From: Patescibacteria group bacterium
GTDB taxonomy: Bacteria > Patescibacteriota > Minisyncoccia > Phycocordibacterales > CAIZLB01
Reading direction: 5' to 3'
Length of the DNA: 44,019 nucleotides
Assembly (NCBI GenBank): GCA_040384865.1
Contig: JAZKIM010000008.1
Coordinates: 3,301 to 47,319, forward strand
Part shown: positions 590 through 41,003 of the stretch, piece by piece
Layout of the letters: each line of letters begins with the position of its first letter
Numbering within the stretch: position 1 is the first letter of the stretch
Notes under the pieces: model-generated
Seen by the model: the letters and a program-made list of their open reading frames with translations, nothing else
What the model was told of the DNA's origin: nothing
The model's database searches: none
Position numbers and translations under genes: made by a program

Positions 590-1591
590 CTAACCTCTAC
601 TTATCATTTCCCTGATCTTCCTTCCCAGCTCTTTCATATTGCCGTGACTAAGTAATCCTAGATAAGACTGTACCGTGTCTTCCACGCCTTTCTTAGCCGC
701 GATCTTCTTTAGCATCCGTTTCCTGGTAACGGTCCTTAAAACACGATGGTCCGAAAAGTGAACCCAGCCCAGAAAGTCATTACCGGATGCCACGGTCCTG
801 ATTGATATCTTCTTCGGGTGCAGTCGTAGCCTTAAGTTATTCCACAAAAACTCACTCATTATTTTAATGGCATCAATAAGCCATCCTCTGTCTTCCGAGA
901 CAATAACAAAATCATCGGCATAACGAACGTAGTATTTTGCCTTGAGCCTATGCTTCACAAACTGGTCAAACTTGTTCATGTAGACATTCACCAAAAGCTG
1001 AGAAGTGAGATTACCCAAAGGTAAGCCTATACCCTTATCGGTTGTATAGAAACTGCCGACAATTTCTGAAATGAGCCAAATGATATCCTTATCAGGGATA
1101 TAATCCTCAACAATTTTAATTAATATTTTCTGGTTAATGGAAGCAAAGAATTTTCTTATATCGCATTTCAAAACCCATACCGTTCTCGTATGATTTTTTG
1201 ATGCCATATACATATAAGACTGAAACTGCTCGATGGCTTTTTGTGTTCCCTTTCCAAATCTGCAAGAATAGGACTGTGCTATAAAGGTTCGGTCAAAGAA
1301 AGGGGAAAGAATTCTGTATATTGCGTGATGCAGAAGTCTGTCTCGAACACTCGCTTTATGAATGTTACGAGGCTTCGGATCGGAGATATTGAAGGCCTCA
1401 TATGGAGAGTGCCTATATGTCTTTGTGGCCAATTCCCTGTGGAGCGAAATTATATTAGCCATCAGGTTTCTCTCAAACTCCTGCACATCCTTTCTAGCCT
1501 TTTTGCCTTTGATAAACTCCTTCCACGCTTCGAGCAGATTTTCGATTGAAATGATATGCTGATACGAATGATTGAGTCGAATGAGAGTCAT
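590..1591 (-). CDS. DGR reverse transcriptase
   Basis: GLPLGNLTSQ DGR signature, YVRYADDF catalytic motif, KCDIRKFF, RDRLLHHA. Confidence 0.96.
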   Translation of the reverse strand: MTLIRLNHSYQHIISIENLLEAWKEFIKGKKARKDVQEFERNLMANIISLHRELATKTYRHSPYEAFNISDPKPRNIHKASVRDRLLHHAIYRILSPFFDRTFIAQSYSCRFGKGTQKAIEQFQSYMYMASKNHTRTVWVLKCDIRKFFASINQKILIKIVEDYIPDKDIIWLISEIVGSFYTTDKGIGLPLGNLTSQLLVNVYMNKFDQFVKHRLKAKYYVRYADDFVIVSEDRGWLIDAIKIMSEFLWNNLRLRLHPKKISIRTVASGNDFLGWVHFSDHRVLRTVTRKRMLKKIAAKKGVEDTVQSYLGLLSHGNMKELGRKIREMISRG

Positions 1592-1985
1592 CCCACGAAG
1601 TCTACCCCCCCCGAGACTTTTACCACTACTTCAGCGTCTAAAGACGGTCTATGTCTTATGGTACGGCTATTATCAAACCATACCGAAACTGCACAGATAT
1701 TCATTAGGGCAGAAAATTGATACTTTATTCATAGAAATTATGGAGGCAATATCTAGTGCTAGCTTCTTACAGAGAGAAGATAAACTACCTTGGATTAGAC
1801 TAGCATCCAGAAAGACAGATACCTTAAAAGTATTGCTTATGGTCCTGTGGGAGACAAAATCCTTACAAGATAAAAAATATGTTGCCCTATCGGTCCAGCT
1901 GGATGAAATTGGAAAGATGCTTGGTGGTTGGAACGGCCAAGTATTAAAACAAAACTCTCCAGTCACGAAGACGGGAGAGAAATGA
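1581..1985 (+). CDS. avd: DGR accessory variability determinant (bAvd-like four-helix bundle)
   Basis: PKLHRYSLGQKI and EIGKMLGGW motifs typical of Avd; lies between RT and TR; ATG at 1581 (track uses TTG at 1572). Confidence 0.88.
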   Translation: MRVIPRSLPPPRLLPLLQRLKTVYVLWYGYYQTIPKLHRYSLGQKIDTLFIEIMEAISSASFLQREDKLPWIRLASRKTDTLKVLLMVLWETKSLQDKKYVALSVQLDEIGKMLGGWNGQVLKQNSPVTKTGEK

Positions 1986-1994
1986 AGAGAGTTG

Positions 1995-2117
1995 CGAAAC
2001 GGCCAGCCGGGTTGTTGTCATTCCAGTCGTTGTCAAGCCAATTCCAGTTGATCACGACCTTGTCACCGTCATCGTAGAGGTACGGGACGTTGAGGTTGCC
2101 ATTGCGGTTACGCACGA
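1995..2117 (-). repeat. DGR template repeat (TR)
   Basis: 123-nt ungapped match to 2501-2623; 31 adenines on the sense strand, including 10 AAC/AAT codons. Confidence 0.97.
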
Positions 2118-2424
2118 AATGTATGGAAAGTCGTCTGTTCCACCACCCCTCGAATACTCTTGGGGTTGTATCGTATTCGGCATCTGTAATGCCTTAACTC
2201 TCCATACCAAGTATCTTCATTTTTTGAAGTGTCTACATCCGTCACTCTATCCGAAACCGTGGTCGCAGATATTCTCGACAGATGGATACTGGGGTCGGTA
2301 GCAGGAAACCGCAGTCTCCCGCATATTCACCTACTGCCATCATGTATGTTATCAGATTTTTTGTAATGAAATAGCTCCACACGGTTGTGCAGAGCTGGAG
2401 TTTGAGACGCTATTCTCCCGAGCG

Positions 2425-2445
2425 TTTGGCGATAAAATCGCCGAA
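2425..2445. promoter_or_regulatory. Hairpin/cruciform downstream of VR (candidate DGR homing element)
   Basis: tttGGCGAT-aaa-ATCGCCgaa, about 48 nt beyond the target stop codon. Confidence 0.55.
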
Positions 2446-2492
2446 GGGCCAAGTCCAAGGGTCTAAGGCATCCCAAGGTTCAAGGCCTGAAG

Positions 2493-3113
2493 CTAACTTT
2501 CGAAACGGCCAGCCGGGTTGCTGTCATCCCAGTCGCTGCCAAGCCAATCCCAGAAGATCACGACCCCGCCACCGTCATCGCAGAGGTACGGGACGCGGAG
2601 GCTGCCACCGCGGCGACGCACGACTGAACCCCAGAGGAAGAGAGCCTTCCCTTTGAAGAACTTCCGAAAGGCTTCGATGCCATTTTTCCGGATTTCTTCA
2701 CCGTCGCGGAGCGTCAAGCAGGTCTTGAGCATGTCTTCCTTCTGGAGATGGGCGTAGAGGTCGTTGCCGACGATGCGTCCCGTCTTCTGTTTGTCGTGGA
2801 GCCATTGATCGACGTTGGCGAGATCGTACTCCGCAGGCCCGTTCGCTTCGAGGTCGGGATGCAGAACGTCTTTGACCCAGTCGGGATAGACAGGCTTCAC
2901 CGTGCGGTCCACCTTGATGAGGGTGTTGAGCGGCGGTTCGACAGGTTTGGGTTTCTCGGTCAGCGTGGCTTCACCACGGGCGAGTTGCATGACGATGGCG
3001 AAGTTCTGACCCGTACTGAGCCATTCGATATCGGTGGCGTTTCCGCCGTTACGGTTTACGGCCTTTTCGAGCTTGTGGCCCGGGCCTTGTCCAAGAATGA
3101 ACGTGTCACTCAT
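2493..3113 (-). CDS. DGR target (variable) protein, about 206 aa, probable C-terminal CLec-like display fold
   Basis: VR encodes the C-terminal VRRRGGSLRVPYLCDDGGGVVIFWDWLGSDWDDSNPAGRF; ATG at 3113 with AAAGGA upstream; fold inferred from DGR precedent. Confidence 0.9.
   Translation of the reverse strand: MSDTFILGQGPGHKLEKAVNRNGGNATDIEWLSTGQNFAIVMQLARGEATLTEKPKPVEPPLNTLIKVDRTVKPVYPDWVKDVLHPDLEANGPAEYDLANVDQWLHDKQKTGRIVGNDLYAHLQKEDMLKTCLTLRDGEEIRKNGIEAFRKFFKGKALFLWGSVVRRRGGSLRVPYLCDDGGGVVIFWDWLGSDWDDSNPAGRFES
2501..2623 (-). repeat. DGR variable repeat (VR) at the 3' end of the target gene
   Basis: 18 mismatches to TR, all opposite TR adenines (14 A>G, 2 A>T, 2 A>C). Confidence 0.97.
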
Positions 3114-3271
3114 ATTACTGACGTGTCCTTTCGGTTGTTGTGAGCGTGCCGTAAAGGCTTGCTCGGATTGTTGTTGATGCGTGGTTTTCGCCACAGCAGA
3201 GAATGGCCTTCCATAAGGCCGCTTTCTTCTGTAGCGAAACAAGCAAGTTAGCGTTTTAAAGAACTGGGTGT

Positions 3272-3335: not shown

Positions 3336-3405
3336 TACTCCCGAAAGGATTTGCACCCTCACCTCTCCCATTGAACAGGGAGGCTCTTCATCAAGCTACA
3401 GGGGC
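3336..3405 (-). pseudogene. Degenerate tRNA-like element (possibly Glu-derived; abnormal anticodon loop)
   Basis: Cloverleaf: GCCCCTG/CGGGAGT acceptor (mismatched), GCTT/GAGC D stem, CTCCC/GGGAG stem with 8-nt loop TGTTCAAT, GG-TGCAAAT-CC T-loop, no CCA. Confidence 0.55.
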
Positions 3406-3526: not shown

Positions 3527-4435
3527 TTAAAGTAGCAATGCGCCGCTTTCCTTCAAAAAATCTTTTACGTCCAACGCTTGAACAAGCTTTGTCTTTCCCA
3601 GAGACACTTTATTATTAGACTTTTTAATAATTGATTTTATTTCGCCAGACATAATTCCAAACGTTGAACCAATTATTTTTTTCTCTTCAAGTCCAACAAT
3701 ATTCAATCTCCTCATATTTACATCATCATATCCAAAACCTAAAAAGATAATTACTTCAGCTTCTTTCAGGGTAGAGTGTGCTCTTTTTACTACCGCGTCA
3801 AAAATAATGTCCTTCTCACTAAGAATATTAATTCCCCTTGTTTCTTCAACTGATGGCCTGCACAGTGTGTTTTTTCCATAAGGAATTTCCCTTATAATTC
3901 CTTCCGTGGGAATATTACCGATACGGCCATACATATGTAATATAGGTATCTTTTCAAGCTGCTTATATATTTCTTGCTCTGATTTATTGTAAGAATTTTT
4001 TAATGCATTAAAAAAGAATGCCTCTATTGATACATCGAAGTTAAATGTAATAATAGATAATTTATTTTTACCAAAGTCTTCAAAAGAATCCTTCATAATA
4101 TTGAATAAATATACATACCAAGATTCTTCTTTAAAGAGTGCTTCAAGATTTTCATGTTCTTTAATCACGTCTGTGATTACAAGTTTTCCAATTTCCAAAA
4201 ATTCTTTTCTCTCTGTAAGAAATTCTTCTATATATTTAGAACCCGAAAGATTAAATGATGAAAAGAAATTATCTATAACAAATTCAGAGAAACCGTGAAC
4301 TTCAGTGAGGGTGCTTCTCATGTTTTTGTCTTGAAGTTTGCCCAGAATTTCTTTTTTAAATTCATTCTGAAGAGGATATCCATAAGGTTTACTGGCCCCT
4401 GCCCCAAGAACAAGAACTGTCTTTTTTGAAATCAT
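3527..4435 (-). CDS. SIR2-like domain protein (putative NAD+-consuming defence effector)
   Basis: VLVLGAGAS, IITFNFD, ILHMYG and IIFLGFGYDD motifs; AT-rich. Confidence 0.8.
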   Translation of the reverse strand: MISKKTVLVLGAGASKPYGYPLQNEFKKEILGKLQDKNMRSTLTEVHGFSEFVIDNFFSSFNLSGSKYIEEFLTERKEFLEIGKLVITDVIKEHENLEALFKEESWYVYLFNIMKDSFEDFGKNKLSIITFNFDVSIEAFFFNALKNSYNKSEQEIYKQLEKIPILHMYGRIGNIPTEGIIREIPYGKNTLCRPSVEETRGINILSEKDIIFDAVVKRAHSTLKEAEVIIFLGFGYDDVNMRRLNIVGLEEKKIIGSTFGIMSGEIKSIIKKSNNKVSLGKTKLVQALDVKDFLKESGALLL

Positions 4436-4552
4436 AACAAGATTATACCAGACCAAATTTAACCTAAATTTAGGATATCCACAAAATAATACTCTATATT
4501 ATAATTAGCATGGGTCGAATATTATTAATAGTTGTAAGCCTATAAAATAACC

Positions 4553-4606
4553 ATGAAAAAAGTCTCTACTAAGGCAACTCAGGCCTTATATCCTTGGAAC
4601 GATTAA
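4553..4606 (+). CDS. 17-aa peptide MKKVSTKATQALYPWND, putative ComX-like precursor
   Basis: ATG 4553 to TAA 4606; TATAAT at 4500-4505; Trp third from the C-terminus; directly upstream of a prenyltransferase-like gene. Confidence 0.6.
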   Translation: MKKVSTKATQALYPWND

Positions 4607-4622
4607 TCTTAATTAATACCAG

Positions 4623-4654
4623 AAACAAAATGACGTAAAAACGTCATTTTGTTT
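4623..4654 (+). terminator. Perfect 14-bp hairpin between the peptide ORF and the prenyltransferase gene
   Basis: aaacaaaatgacgt-aaaa-acgtcattttgttt. Confidence 0.7.
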
Positions 4655-4664
4655 AAATTTAAAA

Positions 4665-5519
4665 ATGAGCCATAAAAACATATTGAATATATTTAGACAA
4701 ATTCAAAATAAAATATATGCTGAAAAGATTTTTGAGAATATACTTGAACAAAATATTGAAAGTAGCGCCTTAAAATCCATCACTCTACTTTCCCACCACT
4801 GGAACTCCCATAACTCCAAAACCGCTAACTCGAACCTTGAAACTTCTCTCGGTGTCATCACACTCCTCGGCTGGGTTGGTTACACCATCCTCGATCACGC
4901 TATCGATGGTCAACATGACATATTAAAATCCATTCCCCTTGCTGAACGGTGCATGCGCGAACTGCACTGGCGACTCAGCCTTCTCTGTAAGACACCTACC
5001 GAACGCACCGTTGTAATAGAACTCCTCACCCTCATTGAAACAGCTCACTACGCCGAATGCCACGGCAGAGTGCCCACACCATGGCACAAGTCTGCCGGCC
5101 ACATGATAGGTCCGCTTATTCTCATCGTACGCCAAGACCATAGCCCGAAAAGCGCTATATTCAAAGCATCCAAAAGTTATTTTATTGAATTCCTCACCAT
5201 AAAGCAGCTCTCGGACGATTTGCGCGACTGGGAGGAAGACTGGAAAGCCGATCGACATACGATAGTGACCGAACATTTACGCAAAATCATATCTTCCCTT
5301 GAGAATAGGAATAAAAATAAAGTTTCATTTAACATGATTCGAAAAATCTATACATTGGGCACCCTTAAACACTTCTGCTTCATCTTAATTCGCCGTGGTA
5401 ACATCGCGCTCCGCGCACTAAAACATACTGGTAACCATCGCAACATAACACACTTTGAAAAGTGTATCACCCGTCTTCAAGACGGTGCCCGCAACGCTTT
5501 AACATATATCAAAAAGTAA
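4665..5519 (+). CDS. Class I isoprenoid synthase-fold protein (polyprenyl synthetase/ComQ-like prenyltransferase)
   Basis: Degenerate first Asp-rich motif YTILDHAID, HKSAG helix, second motif QLSDDLRDWEED. Confidence 0.7.
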   Translation: MSHKNILNIFRQIQNKIYAEKIFENILEQNIESSALKSITLLSHHWNSHNSKTANSNLETSLGVITLLGWVGYTILDHAIDGQHDILKSIPLAERCMRELHWRLSLLCKTPTERTVVIELLTLIETAHYAECHGRVPTPWHKSAGHMIGPLILIVRQDHSPKSAIFKASKSYFIEFLTIKQLSDDLRDWEEDWKADRHTIVTEHLRKIISSLENRNKNKVSFNMIRKIYTLGTLKHFCFILIRRGNIALRALKHTGNHRNITHFEKCITRLQDGARNALTYIKK

Positions 5520-5621
5520 TTTAATTGACCTCTGTGTGACCTTTGTGGCAATATAAACCCCGTTCAATGTTGAACGCCTGCTCTTTCCGTAACATCAACA
5601 CCAACCCAAAAGACCTAAAAC

Positions 5622-6077
5622 ATGAAACCTGCCAGCAGAGTCTACGAAGTCGTTAGCGTATCCGTCATCCCGCGAGGCGGGGACAATTCAGGGATCGGCG
5701 CAAGTAAAATGCTCCATCTCGATTATTTCCGAGAAGTGCCCGAAGGGCGCATCCAGGAAAGATTCAATCACCCCAACCTTCGGCTATGTGCCTATCCTGC
5801 GGAAAATGTGCGATATTTCCTACTGCTTCCCGAGGGAGATCCTCAACCAGGGAGCGGCGTCCCCTGCCCATTCGAACTTTTTCGTGTCATGAAGGATCAC
5901 CGCACACAAATCGCCAGCGGCCACATCGACTGTGAAAAACTAGGGCGTACAGCGAGTATCGGCCCAGTCTTCAAAGTCATAACCGGCGCCATCTGCCCCC
6001 ACTACACCTTCCAGGTGAAGCAAAGCCACATGGATGAGTTCGCCGAACAGTCTGCCGCCATCATTATTACGTCCTGA
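5622..6077 (+). CDS. Hypothetical protein
   Basis: 151-aa ORF, A/C-rich leader, followed by GC hairpins at 6102-6197. Confidence 0.6.
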   Translation: MKPASRVYEVVSVSVIPRGGDNSGIGASKMLHLDYFREVPEGRIQERFNHPNLRLCAYPAENVRYFLLLPEGDPQPGSGVPCPFELFRVMKDHRTQIASGHIDCEKLGRTASIGPVFKVITGAICPHYTFQVKQSHMDEFAEQSAAIIITS

Positions 6078-7319: not shown

Positions 7320-7988
7320 ATGTCCACTGAAGCAAAAACAGTTACCGCAATAGTTATTATCACCATTCTCATCATCATCGGCGGTATTTTCGTAATGAGC
7401 ACCCAGTCAGCCAACTTGCCTGACATGGTAGTCAATTCAGATATTCTTGTACGTCCTGATAGCCCTATCATCAAGGGTGAGCAAGATCACATCACCATAG
7501 TGGAATTCGCCGACTATGAATGCCCTTCATGCGCGGTAATCCATCCAGAACTAAAGAAGCTGCTCTCTTCAGAAGACGGTAAATACATAAACTTTGTGTT
7601 CCGAAACTTCCCTCTTCACAGCGGTTCAGTTCAAGCTTCTGTGGCAGTTCAAGCTGCTGGCGCACAAGGAAAGTATTGGGAAATGCACGACAAAGTATTT
7701 GAAAATCAGGATGAATGGGCATCCATATCAGCCTCCAACGAATCAAAGCGTGCGGAATTGTTTGAGAAATACGCTACGGAAATTGGGCTCGATATCAATG
7801 CATATCGTCTAGCACTTAAAGACAGCAAATACACAGATCTCATTAAGCGTGATCAGGCAGATGCCATTGCTATGAAAGTCAGTGTCACGCCCACTCTCAT
7901 CATTAATGGAACAGAGATCATCAAAGGTGCCGTTTCTTACGAAAAACTAAAGGAGGTTATCGACGCGGAGTTAGCGAAGAACAACTAA
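7320..7988 (+). CDS. DsbA/BdbD-family thioredoxin-fold oxidoreductase
   Basis: N-terminal TM anchor, IVEFADYECPSC, FRNFPLH, TPTLIING. Confidence 0.92.
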   Translation: MSTEAKTVTAIVIITILIIIGGIFVMSTQSANLPDMVVNSDILVRPDSPIIKGEQDHITIVEFADYECPSCAVIHPELKKLLSSEDGKYINFVFRNFPLHSGSVQASVAVQAAGAQGKYWEMHDKVFENQDEWASISASNESKRAELFEKYATEIGLDINAYRLALKDSKYTDLIKRDQADAIAMKVSVTPTLIINGTEIIKGAVSYEKLKEVIDAELAKNN

Positions 7989-9670
7989 ATTTCAATCTTT
8001 TCAGGCTCAGCAACAACGACCTTGTTCTTCGTCAGCTTTTGATTGAACATCCTCCACACTTCCCCAAGCTCGGTACTGCCGAGTAGTTTAAACACAAGCA
8101 TGGTTATACCAATACCCACAGCACCGCCAATGATTCCCTGAGTTAAAATACCACCAAAGGTATCAAGGTTCAGTCTTTCATCTACGGTATTGAGGGCTAT
8201 ATAGGCAAAAAAGGCACCAATCACTCCTGCACTAAAGCTTGAAAACAAAACCTTGCCCACTTTGTGCGTAAGCGAACCAAAATCGCGCTCGAAACTAATC
8301 CACAAAATAAAAGCATTAATAAGTGTTCCTATAGAAAAACCAAGCGGTAACATCAACACGCCCGCACCAGGAATATCCTCTACGCGAAAAGCAGACTCTA
8401 TCACATATTTAAACATCGGATAATTATTGAATGCCATCAAAAGAAAGAACGGTGCGCCGATAGTAATGACCGAAGATATGAGGTTTATAAAAAGCGGTTT
8501 CTTTGTCATACCAGCCGCGTAGTAAGCACGTATGAATAAAAGCTCGAGACCTTGAGCGACAAGAGAAATGGTAAAAAGGGCAAGACAAGCGGCTGTGAGA
8601 CGGGTATCATCCCAATCAAATGATCCGGAGCCGAGGATGACGCGAACAATTTGGGCACGAAGGACAATAAAAAGAGCCGTGATGGGGATAGACCAGAATA
8701 CAATATGGCGTGCTGCGGTAGTAACATGTTCAATGAATTCAGCACGTTCGCCACGTGCAATGAATGCGCTAAGTGTCGGAAATGCAGCAAGTGCATAACT
8801 CACCCCAACAATAGCAAACGGTACTGACTGTAAACTGTTCGAAAAACTAAAGATGGCAATTGATCCTGTGGTAATCAAAGAAGCAAACGAGGTGATGAAA
8901 ACAAGCTCAAGATTAGTAGCAGAAAGGGTCAAGGTACGAGGTATCGACAACTTAAACATTTCCCATACCACCCGACGGTCAATATTAAAAGTAATGCGCG
9001 GAAGCAGTCCTCTTGCTGCAACGAAAGGCACCTGTACCAGAAAATGCACTAACCCTCCAATAATAACGCCCACAACTACTCCTTGAATTCCCATAATTGG
9101 ATACAAAAACAAAAGTCCAAAGATAATAGAGAGATTGTAAAGAATAGGACTCATAGCGTAAAGGAAAAACCTTTTACTAATCTGAGTGATGACACCAAGA
9201 AGGTTTGAAATTCCTAAACAGATAGGCTGAAGCAATAATAGTCGAGCAAGCAATGTCAGCTGATCCAATACAGCAGGATCTTTCATGCCCGGCATCAGCA
9301 AGGGAGTAATGTACGGCATAATAAACCAAAAAACGACAGAGACAACTATCATAAGGCCGACAAAAACCGTAAAGATAGTACTCATGAGATGAGCCGCCTC
9401 TTCCTTCTTTCTTTCAAAAATACCGCTGAAGAATGGGATCAGTACTGAAATGGAAACCAATGACGCCACGGCGGCATAGATCAAGTCTGGAATTCGAAAA
9501 GCTGCATAGTATATGTCGAGTGTTTGTCCTGCCCCAAAGTGATTAGCCAATATCCTATCGCGTACCAGAGCAAGAACTTGCGAAAGAAAAGTAAAGAAGC
9601 CAATGAGAAAAGCGGCCTGGTGAACCCCGGCGATTTCCTGATGAAAGAGTTTAAGAATGCGATTGCCCAT
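7985..9670 (-). CDS. murJ: Lipid II flippase MurJ (MviN)
   Basis: LALVRDRILA, YYAAFRIPD, multi-TM MOP-family profile. Confidence 0.9.
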   Translation of the reverse strand: MGNRILKLFHQEIAGVHQAAFLIGFFTFLSQVLALVRDRILANHFGAGQTLDIYYAAFRIPDLIYAAVASLVSISVLIPFFSGIFERKKEEAAHLMSTIFTVFVGLMIVVSVVFWFIMPYITPLLMPGMKDPAVLDQLTLLARLLLLQPICLGISNLLGVITQISKRFFLYAMSPILYNLSIIFGLLFLYPIMGIQGVVVGVIIGGLVHFLVQVPFVAARGLLPRITFNIDRRVVWEMFKLSIPRTLTLSATNLELVFITSFASLITTGSIAIFSFSNSLQSVPFAIVGVSYALAAFPTLSAFIARGERAEFIEHVTTAARHIVFWSIPITALFIVLRAQIVRVILGSGSFDWDDTRLTAACLALFTISLVAQGLELLFIRAYYAAGMTKKPLFINLISSVITIGAPFFLLMAFNNYPMFKYVIESAFRVEDIPGAGVLMLPLGFSIGTLINAFILWISFERDFGSLTHKVGKVLFSSFSAGVIGAFFAYIALNTVDERLNLDTFGGILTQGIIGGAVGIGITMLVFKLLGSTELGEVWRMFNQKLTKNKVVVAEPEKIEI

Positions 9671-40985: not shown

Positions 40986-41003
40986 ATCTGGTATTTATTA
41001 AAA

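Follow-up and report, generated by a model that had tools for sequence, protein, structure and literature searches.

The Trp-tailed micro-ORF, the hairpin and the enzyme gene

The DNA analysed here, hereafter the window, is a 44,019-bp stretch of contig JAZKIM010000008.1 (positions 3,301 to 47,319 of the forward strand; assembly GCA_040384865.1) from a Patescibacteria group bacterium, and all coordinates refer to it. Between 4478 and 5519 its plus strand carries a promoter-like element, a very short open reading frame (micro-ORF), a hairpin and a gene, P0001, for a stand-alone protein of 284 amino acids (aa) with a predicted trans-isoprenyl-diphosphate-synthase (IPPS) fold. An initial annotation had suggested that these elements constitute a prenylated-peptide system akin to ComQ/ComX of Bacillus. 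The promoter-like element (4478-4505) consists of TCCACA (4478-4483) and TATAAT (4500-4505) separated by a 16-nt spacer, with 10 of 12 matches in a consensus scan. By the same scan, promoter-like sites are not enriched in the region relative to shuffled sequences (3 found, 3.5 expected). After 47 nt follows the micro-ORF (4553-4606, plus strand), a candidate precursor gene that translates to MKKVSTKATQALYPWND, 17 aa, and then a stop codon. Trp15 is the third residue counted from the C-terminus of this sequence and belongs to the tail Pro-Trp-Asn-Asp. In the 58 nt between the stop codon and P0001 there is a perfect 14-bp stem with a 4-nt loop, AAAA (4623-4654, plus strand). P0001 itself (4665-5519, plus strand), a candidate peptide Trp prenyltransferase gene, starts 10 nt behind the hairpin, so that transcription of the enzyme gene must pass through it. 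The TATAAT, the micro-ORF, the 14-bp hairpin and the 284-aa reading frame with its motifs DHAID and QLSDDLRDWEED had all been placed correctly in the initial annotation.

Taken by itself, a single 17-codon ORF in an AT-rich spacer is within chance, since we estimate about one per 200 nt per strand. What goes beyond chance is the recurrence of a micro-ORF ending in P-W-[N/D]-x-stop, together with a hairpin, ahead of homologous genes (see below). No Shine-Dalgarno site was seen before the micro-ORF, but this is uninformative because Shine-Dalgarno-like words, even 4-mers, precede just 23 of the 355 long ORFs of this genome, the upstream regions being A/T-rich instead. The hairpin folds with -17 kcal/mol compared to -4.4 ± 2.3 kcal/mol for shuffled sequences (z -5.5; 0 of 200 shuffles as good), and its arm is unique within the 783,813-bp genome. 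An Rfam scan of 4400-4720 gave nothing credible, the one snoRNA row scoring 22.7 bits against a gathering score of 100. The intergenic region lies between divergent genes, with the SIR2-like gene P0002 upstream on the minus strand. At the other end, 42 nt past the enzyme stop codon, a short GC hairpin (5561-5576) shows a terminator-like pattern on both strands with a weak consensus match; it possibly marks the end of the transcription unit.

Sequence, motifs and predicted fold of P0001

By sequence, P0001 matched neither PF00348 (Pfam, E up to 1) nor any NCBIfam or PADLOC model, nor any PDB sequence (E up to 10). The Pfam rows PTS_EIIB, GBP and FIMAH were weak, fell below their cut-offs and were set aside. 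The protein carries two Asp-rich motifs, DHAID (D77-D81) and QLSDDLRDWEED (Q181-D192). In a 108-sequence alignment of the family, the only invariant columns are D77, D81, Q181, D184, D185, D188 and D192, and the consensus motifs read YDDxLD and RQLNDDxHDWExD. The first motif is DHxxD in P0001, DYIRD in the relative L013 and DDCLD in the relative L047. The spacing of D184, D188 and D192 is NSE/DTE-like.

A model of P0001 obtained with AlphaFold2 from the family alignment is all-helical and confident (predicted local distance difference test, pLDDT, 95.8; predicted template modelling score, pTM, 0.92). In a comparison with 48,161 PDB representatives using VIA-align, the model aligns with trans-prenyl diphosphate synthases at Z 19-21 over 254-265 residues, and many more entries reach Z 17-20. 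The best match is 9jqs_A (Z 21.1, root-mean-square deviation 3.4, 262 residues). The IPPS-fold indole prenyltransferase Ord1 (9v4g_A) scores Z 17.1, followed by MoeN5 with 15.9, and values of about 12-13 are reached by terpene cyclases and HpnC. A Foldseek search of the PDB with the same model was marginal (best E 1.3e-3). Judged by the model, P0001 has the all-alpha trans-IPPS fold, which ComQ, PalQ and StheQ possess as Trp prenyltransferases, as had been surmised. The isoprenoid-synthase character that the initial annotation had read from the Asp-rich motifs thus holds at the level of the fold, but membership in the polyprenyl synthases by sequence does not. A complex prediction for P0001 and the 17-aa peptide, which is below the advised 30 residues, gave no answer (score 0.01, mark 0.32) and counts neither way as to binding. 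In the ESM Atlas, the nearest entries by features are unnamed clusters of about 300 aa that are commonest in Chloroflexota and Bacillota (0.95-0.96), which we regard as a lead only.

A family dominated by long, cyclase-fused forms

A HMMER search of 1.84 billion representatives retrieved 651 relatives at E up to 1e-3. Few of them resemble P0001 in length, namely P0004, P0005 and P0006 (54-61% identical) and P0007. Most have 580-690 aa and align to P0001 with their C-terminal half. The N-terminal 270 positions of the family profile match the class II cyclase (TC-beta) domain of drimenol synthases (9mhs_B, E 5.5e-18; 9m7d_A, E 5e-17), and the same profile also matches fungal AstC (E 1.3e-5); the long-form N-terminal consensus PYPDDLDDT is a DxDD-type motif. 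Drimenol synthase was found with the family profile only; P0011 and the L047 protein, each used as a single query against the PDB, returned nothing relevant. The bifunctional drimenol synthases (PDB 9mhs, 9m7d) are described as a haloacid dehalogenase (HAD) domain plus a class II TC-beta domain (PMC12232559, PMC12365925), whereas in the ~640-aa relatives the partner of the cyclase domain is IPPS-like and not a HAD phosphatase.

The class II cyclase domain is absent from P0001, and a search with P0009 as query did not find it as a separate copy elsewhere in the own genome. That P0001 is the decayed remnant of a long form is ruled out by three other proteins of 281-289 aa that start at the same position, together with the complete and confident model; the short form is a conserved type. 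The distant homologue P0072 passes the Pfam model Terpene_syn_C_2 (25.9 bits, cut-off 23.7) and is the only family member to do so. The named genomes with family members are Saccharimonadales or Saccharibacteria metagenome-assembled genomes (MAGs). This distribution, the small genome (0.78 Mb), the few Shine-Dalgarno sites and a diversity-generating retroelement in the window fit the view of the initial annotation that the DNA stems from a bacterium of the candidate phyla radiation type.

The ~640-aa family of cyclase-IPPS-like fusions (e.g. L041-L047 and L066-L071; P0009-P0155) is large, unannotated and common in Saccharimonadales MAGs, and the genomes that encode it are mostly devoid of UppS and canonical polyprenyl synthases. 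The latter are sporadic in the lineage; one of them (G001:C5:1727-2527; PF00348, E 7.6e-50) lies about 19 kb from the long-form gene on its contig.

Peptide and hairpin recur together upstream of distant homologues

Family genes with their surrounding DNA were collected from metagenome contigs (19 loci), GTDB genomes (8 loci) and relatives (10 of 61 genomes matching P0001). With the family alignment A1, sampling was widened to the order (20/401 genomes), the phylum (13/401) and bacterial family f1 (20/50), and five extended upstream regions were examined as well. None of these order, phylum, family f1 and extended-upstream samples contributed an additional peptide-bearing locus, and viral contigs contained no relative. 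Removal of duplicates left 79 distinct family genes. For 69 of them the DNA ahead of the open frame extends over at least 200 nt, and in these a zone reaching from -300 to +130 relative to the start of the frame was inspected on the same strand. The DNA of P0004, P0005 and P0006 lies outside these 69 loci.

A same-strand micro-ORF ending in P-W-[N/D]-x-stop precedes four of the 69 genes, the tails being YPWND, YPWNE, LPWNG and TPWDN. Apart from the window (tail ...ALYPWND, 17 aa, short-form enzyme of 284 aa), these are L021 from genome G002 of the same genus (tail ...SSAQYPWNE, 36 aa from the first ATG; enzyme of 534 aa, 40-43% identical by tblastn), the metagenome contig L013 (MTYSLPWNG, 9 aa; enzyme of 261 aa, 26% identical) and L047 from genome G201, which belongs to another bacterial family of the order (MKKLLEKALRSPKVSLALASGPNSKMMTPWDN, 32 aa; enzyme of 640 aa). 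Three distant homologues thus possess the upstream W-x-x-stop ORF that the initial annotation had proposed to look for, in a sharper form and with a hairpin after each. Perfect stems of at least 12 bp are present in the zone of all four peptide-bearing loci (14 bp in the window, 19 bp in L021, 15 bp in L013, 13 bp in L047) and in none of the 65 others. They are far more stable than shuffled sequences (z -5.5, -7.9, -6.4 and -4.9, respectively), and all four sit between the micro-ORF and the start codon of the enzyme gene. In addition, a -10-like TATAAT or TATAAA stands 40-60 nt before each of the four micro-ORFs, as judged by eye for L021, L013 and L047.

The tail motif is rare elsewhere. In 1,567,566 codon positions of the own genome P-W-[N/D]-x-stop occurs three times, once as the ORF discussed here, and the first 53 non-redundant loci hold a single non-upstream occurrence in 458,030 positions. 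From this background rate, about 0.04 occurrences would be expected by chance in the zones examined, compared with the four seen. A P-W-D-x-stop in L014 and an SPWNT-stop in L104 were counted as background, their position being within the enzyme gene, in a different frame or on the opposite strand. Looser Trp-tailed ORFs (MAWE, LAWA, AAWW and LEWD before the stop) were rejected as variant precursors: they have no hairpin behind them, and tails of this kind often arise by chance. Close to the homologue in G005, a 21-bp hairpin proved to be the terminator of an upstream gene beside a tRNA.

When the four micro-ORFs are compared, lengths (9, 17, 32 and 36 aa) and N-termini vary while the tail and the position of the stop codon are constant, and codon third positions within the tails differ (AAC/AAT, GAT/GAA). 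This is the pattern expected of selection on a translated C-terminus. The four enzymes, two short and two long forms, are 24-43% identical and fall in three lineages of a quick maximum-likelihood tree. In a well-supported clade (P0001, P0004-P0006, P0008-P0011), both members with DNA at hand carry the peptide; in a short-form clade (P0007, L013, L036, L037), only L013 does; and the third peptide-bearing lineage is the long-branched L047. A 30-member core clade of long forms has no peptide. The neighbouring genes are unrelated: a SIR2-like protein, an orphan ORF, DsbB and DsbA, followed by MurJ, in the window, a helix-turn-helix protein and an integrase at L021, and GluRS and IF-1 at L013. In view of the low identity of the enzymes and the lack of common neighbours, peptide, hairpin and enzyme form a self-contained module.

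Comparison with known peptide Trp prenyltransferases

In the literature considered here, IPPS-fold enzymes shown to prenylate Trp in ribosomal peptides are limited to three, namely ComQ from Bacillus and relatives, PalQ from Paenibacillus and StheQ from Chloroflexi. With the ComQ/ComX pair of the Bacillus subtilis comQXPA system, as it is described, the module has in common the IPPS fold, an Asp-rich first motif (in P0001 the degenerate DHAID in place of DDxxD) and an adjacent short peptide with Trp in third position from the C-terminus. ComQ is reported to prenylate the Trp at position 3 as counted from ComX168's C-terminus (PMC13731918), and the tail ...YPWND has the same register, as the initial annotation had pointed out. 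Its remarks on the differences also stand. The gene order is reversed relative to comQ-then-comX, as the peptide (4553-4606) precedes the enzyme (4665-5519), with the hairpin in between, and at 17 aa the precursor is much shorter than that of ComX, which has roughly 55 aa. No ComP/ComA is adjacent, the nearest HATPase_c gene lying around position 41,000, about 36 kb away, and none was found at L021, L013 or L047. Furthermore, P0001 lacks the PF00348 match, its second motif is not the pseudo-SARM (SARM, second Asp-rich motif) NDxxx of ComQ as described, and the module resides in an ultra-small genome in which an isoprenoid pathway was not detected.

PalQ from Paenibacillus alvei is described as belonging to the isoprenoid-synthase superfamily as a remote member that clusters separately, which also holds for P0001, and its genes are arranged as kinase, precursor PalX and transferase, so that the precursor gene likewise lies upstream of the prenyltransferase gene (PMC10853753). 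In PalQ, the first Asp-rich motif (FARM) comprises D89/D93 and the SARM D200/D204, and the conserved Q197 has been proposed to bind the indole NH (PMC10853753); the spacing equals that in P0001 (D77/D81, then Q181/D184/D188). According to the same report, PalQ works with donors of C5-C15, and in vitro it modifies the core octapeptide by itself, the leader being dispensable (PMC10853753). Two differences concern the substrate. PalQ is reported to need Trp as the last residue, added Ala residues abolishing activity, whereas two residues follow Trp in all four peptides found here; and PalX has an NHLP leader domain and an adjacent histidine kinase, whereas the four peptides (9-36 aa) are leaderless and no kinase accompanies them (PMC10853753).

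The StheQ/StheX pair of Sphaerobacter thermophilus provides a precedent outside the Firmicutes for an IPPS-fold enzyme with an adjacent Trp-tailed peptide (bioRxiv 10.64898/2026.08.29.745113). StheQ is distant from ComQ (19%), and StheX comprises 69 aa with Trp second from the end (bioRxiv 10.64898/2026.08.29.745113). StheQ is described as holding a single Mg at the first motif; compared by description only, its pseudo-SARM binds no metal, unlike the full DDxxD motif of P0001 (bioRxiv 10.64898/2026.08.29.745113). In the open-access literature, we found no link between Saccharibacteria or Patescibacteria and ComQ or peptide prenyltransferases.

Proposed function and alternative explanations

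Since P0001 shares the motif spacing of PalQ and the peptide has the register of ComX168, we take prenylation of Trp15 in MKKVSTKATQALYPWND by a ComQ/ComX-like system to be the most likely function, an assignment by analogy that we consider fairly probable but far from settled. According to this proposal, the promoter at about 4478-4505 would drive the 17-codon gene, and its product would serve as the substrate of P0001. The enzyme would bind metal and diphosphate through two Asp-rich sites, D77xxxD81 and Q181-x-x-D184-D185-x-x-D188, ionise a C5-C15 prenyl diphosphate and transfer its chain onto the Trp15 indole, in analogy to ComQ, PalQ and StheQ, probably at C3 with closure of a pyrroloindoline ring. 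The hairpin between the genes is probably a leaky terminator, a processing site or a stabilising stem, and would probably end or stabilise most transcripts, so that peptide mRNA would exceed enzyme mRNA. Such stems are common in operons for bacteriocins and for ribosomally synthesised and post-translationally modified peptides. The prenyl donor might be supplied by the host cell.

Several observations weigh against this proposal. The peptide is missing from 65 of the 69 family genes, among them close short forms (L036, L037 and the set from genus g5) that belong to the same bacterial family. The enzyme family as a whole therefore cannot have peptide modification as its function and does something else or uses other acceptors. 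The second motif of P0001 is a full DDxxD (S-D184-D185-L-R-D188, plus D192), as in chain-elongating synthases, whereas ComQ-family enzymes are described as having a metal-free, degenerate pseudo-SARM, NDxxx (bioRxiv 10.64898/2026.08.29.745113). The closest structures found with VIA-align are elongating synthases, too, and because P0001 matches neither PF00348 nor NCBIfam models, its kinship with ComQ is structural only. In the neighbourhoods of the window, L021, L013 and L047, the module has no conserved exporter, protease, kinase or regulator next to it, and the 9-aa precursor of L013 has no room for a leader. Among the sequencing runs searched, no RNA run covers 4300-5700 of the window; one DNA run, which may be the source sample, does. 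The supply of the donor is a further point. In the own genome (G000; 783,813 bp, 93.8% complete), PF00348, UppS (PF01255), IspH (PF02401) and HMG-CoA reductase (PF00368) were not found. Within bacterial family f1, UppS was present in 0 of 15 genomes and PF00348 in three of 15, two of them above the cut-off. As no isoprenoid pathway was detected, the prenyl donor would need to be scavenged from the host, which is plausible for such organisms. Even without a detected UppS for an undecaprenyl carrier lipid, G000 still encodes the lipid II flippase MurJ (7985-9670 in the window).

Some of these observations would suit an enzyme that acts on small-molecule isoprenoids, either elongating or recycling host prenyl diphosphates for a carrier lipid or working as a terpene synthase, with the micropeptide as a partner subunit, regulator or toxin. 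The top structural matches (Z 19-21) and the retention of both Asp-rich motifs agree with this explanation, as do the terpenoid chemistry suggested by the drimenol-synthase-like cyclase domain fused to most family members, the Terpene_syn_C_2 match of P0072 and the many family genes without a peptide. A lineage without UppS yet with MurJ would moreover need an unusual prenyl metabolism. Elongation, however, would have to be fed by isopentenyl diphosphate (IPP) and dimethylallyl diphosphate (DMAPP), for which no pathway was detected in the genome. Elongating synthases possess basic IPP-binding motifs, GKRxR and, after the first Asp-rich motif, RRG; inspection by eye did not reveal them in P0001. 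The strict linkage of a Trp-tailed ORF and a hairpin to the enzyme in four distant loci asks for a functional tie. We regard a purely small-molecule role as unlikely, albeit worth keeping in mind.

The layout of short ORF, strong hairpin and gene is also that of a classical attenuator, and arrest peptides are conserved at their C-termini. The micro-ORF could then be a cis-acting leader on which ribosomes pause at P-W-N/D-x-stop and so control the hairpin and thereby read-through or translation of the enzyme gene, the peptide itself being functionless. All four loci keep both ORF and hairpin, and the enzyme is transcribed through the latter. Yet the distance from stop codon to hairpin (16, 34, 14 and 1 nt across the four loci) is too variable for a constant action of the ribosome, minimum-free-energy folds show a lone dominant stem and no antiterminator pairing common to the loci, and the 9-aa peptide of L013 is short for tunnel-dependent arrest. 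Since attenuation would also leave the invariant Trp beside a Trp-prenylating enzyme fold unexplained, we deem it improbable. Least credible, to the point that we hardly reckon with it, is the explanation that the micro-ORF arose by chance in the AT-rich promoter region, the hairpin being an unrelated element such as an operator or relic. The estimated frequency of 17-codon ATG ORFs and the missing Shine-Dalgarno site would permit it, but not the same four-residue tail at the stop codon in four of 69 loci against about 0.04 expected, nor the exclusive presence of the hairpin in these four. Recent copying of one mobile sequence is an improbable cause of the recurrence, given the low identity of the enzymes and their unrelated flanks.

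Other features of the window

Upstream of the module, the window contains a diversity-generating retroelement (590-3242) with a reverse transcriptase (590-1591, minus strand; RVT_1, E 6e-23), a bAvd-like ORF (1572-1985, plus strand; 48.4 bits) and a pair of 126-nt repeats (1992-2117 and 2498-2623) that are 85% identical. Of 19 mismatches between the repeats, 18 fall where the first copy has a T on the plus strand, and hence an A on the minus strand, which is the signature of adenine mutagenesis. The variable copy lies at the 3' end of a 249-aa ORF (2493-3242, minus strand) without Pfam match. Between this target gene and the SIR2-like gene, a tRNA-like Rfam match (3336-3405, minus strand; 29.5 bits, threshold 29) is not called by ARAGORN and could represent a decayed tRNA or an island boundary. 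The SIR2-like protein P0002 (3527-4456, minus strand) matches the PADLOC SIR2 model (E 1.3e-9), while Pfam SIR2_2 stays below its cut-off (22.1 versus 24.5 bits). It is a possible defence gene, for which a partner was looked for in vain. P0003 (5622-6077, plus strand; 151 aa), which follows the enzyme gene directly, has no Pfam, NCBIfam or PADLOC match, and its stretch is richer in GC than the flanks (0.48 versus 0.33). Judged by position and not by sequence search, L021, L013 and L047 have no same-strand ORF in its place immediately behind the enzyme gene.

Implications

By analogy, the module would work like the ComQ, PalQ and StheQ systems, although it falls outside them by sequence membership and lacks the pseudo-SARM; its peptides have a defined P-W-N/D-x tail, and in relatives the enzyme is fused to a class II cyclase domain. 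If Trp15 is indeed prenylated, P0001 would represent a fourth family of such enzymes, one that cannot be recognised from its sequence and that resides in a Saccharibacteria-type ultra-small genome, and this would widen the range of this chemistry. The leaderless peptides of 9-17 aa would then be the smallest known natural substrates for Trp prenylation and attractive for peptide-lipidation biocatalysis.

The cyclase-transferase fusions suggest terpenoid-peptide hybrids, a kind of product that, to our knowledge, has not been described to date. In a scenario that we put forward only tentatively and think rather doubtful, ultra-small episymbionts would lipidate leaderless peptides (9-36 aa, P-W-N/D-x) with prenyl diphosphate from the host, and the cyclase-fused forms (L021, L047) would cyclise the farnesyl group on Trp or on the donor to yield drimane-type terpenoid-peptide hybrids that act as signals or membrane anchors at the interface of symbiont and host. 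Drimane hybrids made with host-derived farnesyl diphosphate would be a ribosomal counterpart of the drimentine-type indole terpenoids. A role of the product in quorum sensing or host manipulation, as raised in the initial annotation, is speculation. If the proposed function is correct, one would have to ask how a cell that lacks an isoprenoid pathway comes by its prenyl donor, and organisms whose relations with their hosts are little understood would be provided with a concrete molecule, secreted or anchored in the membrane, for study.

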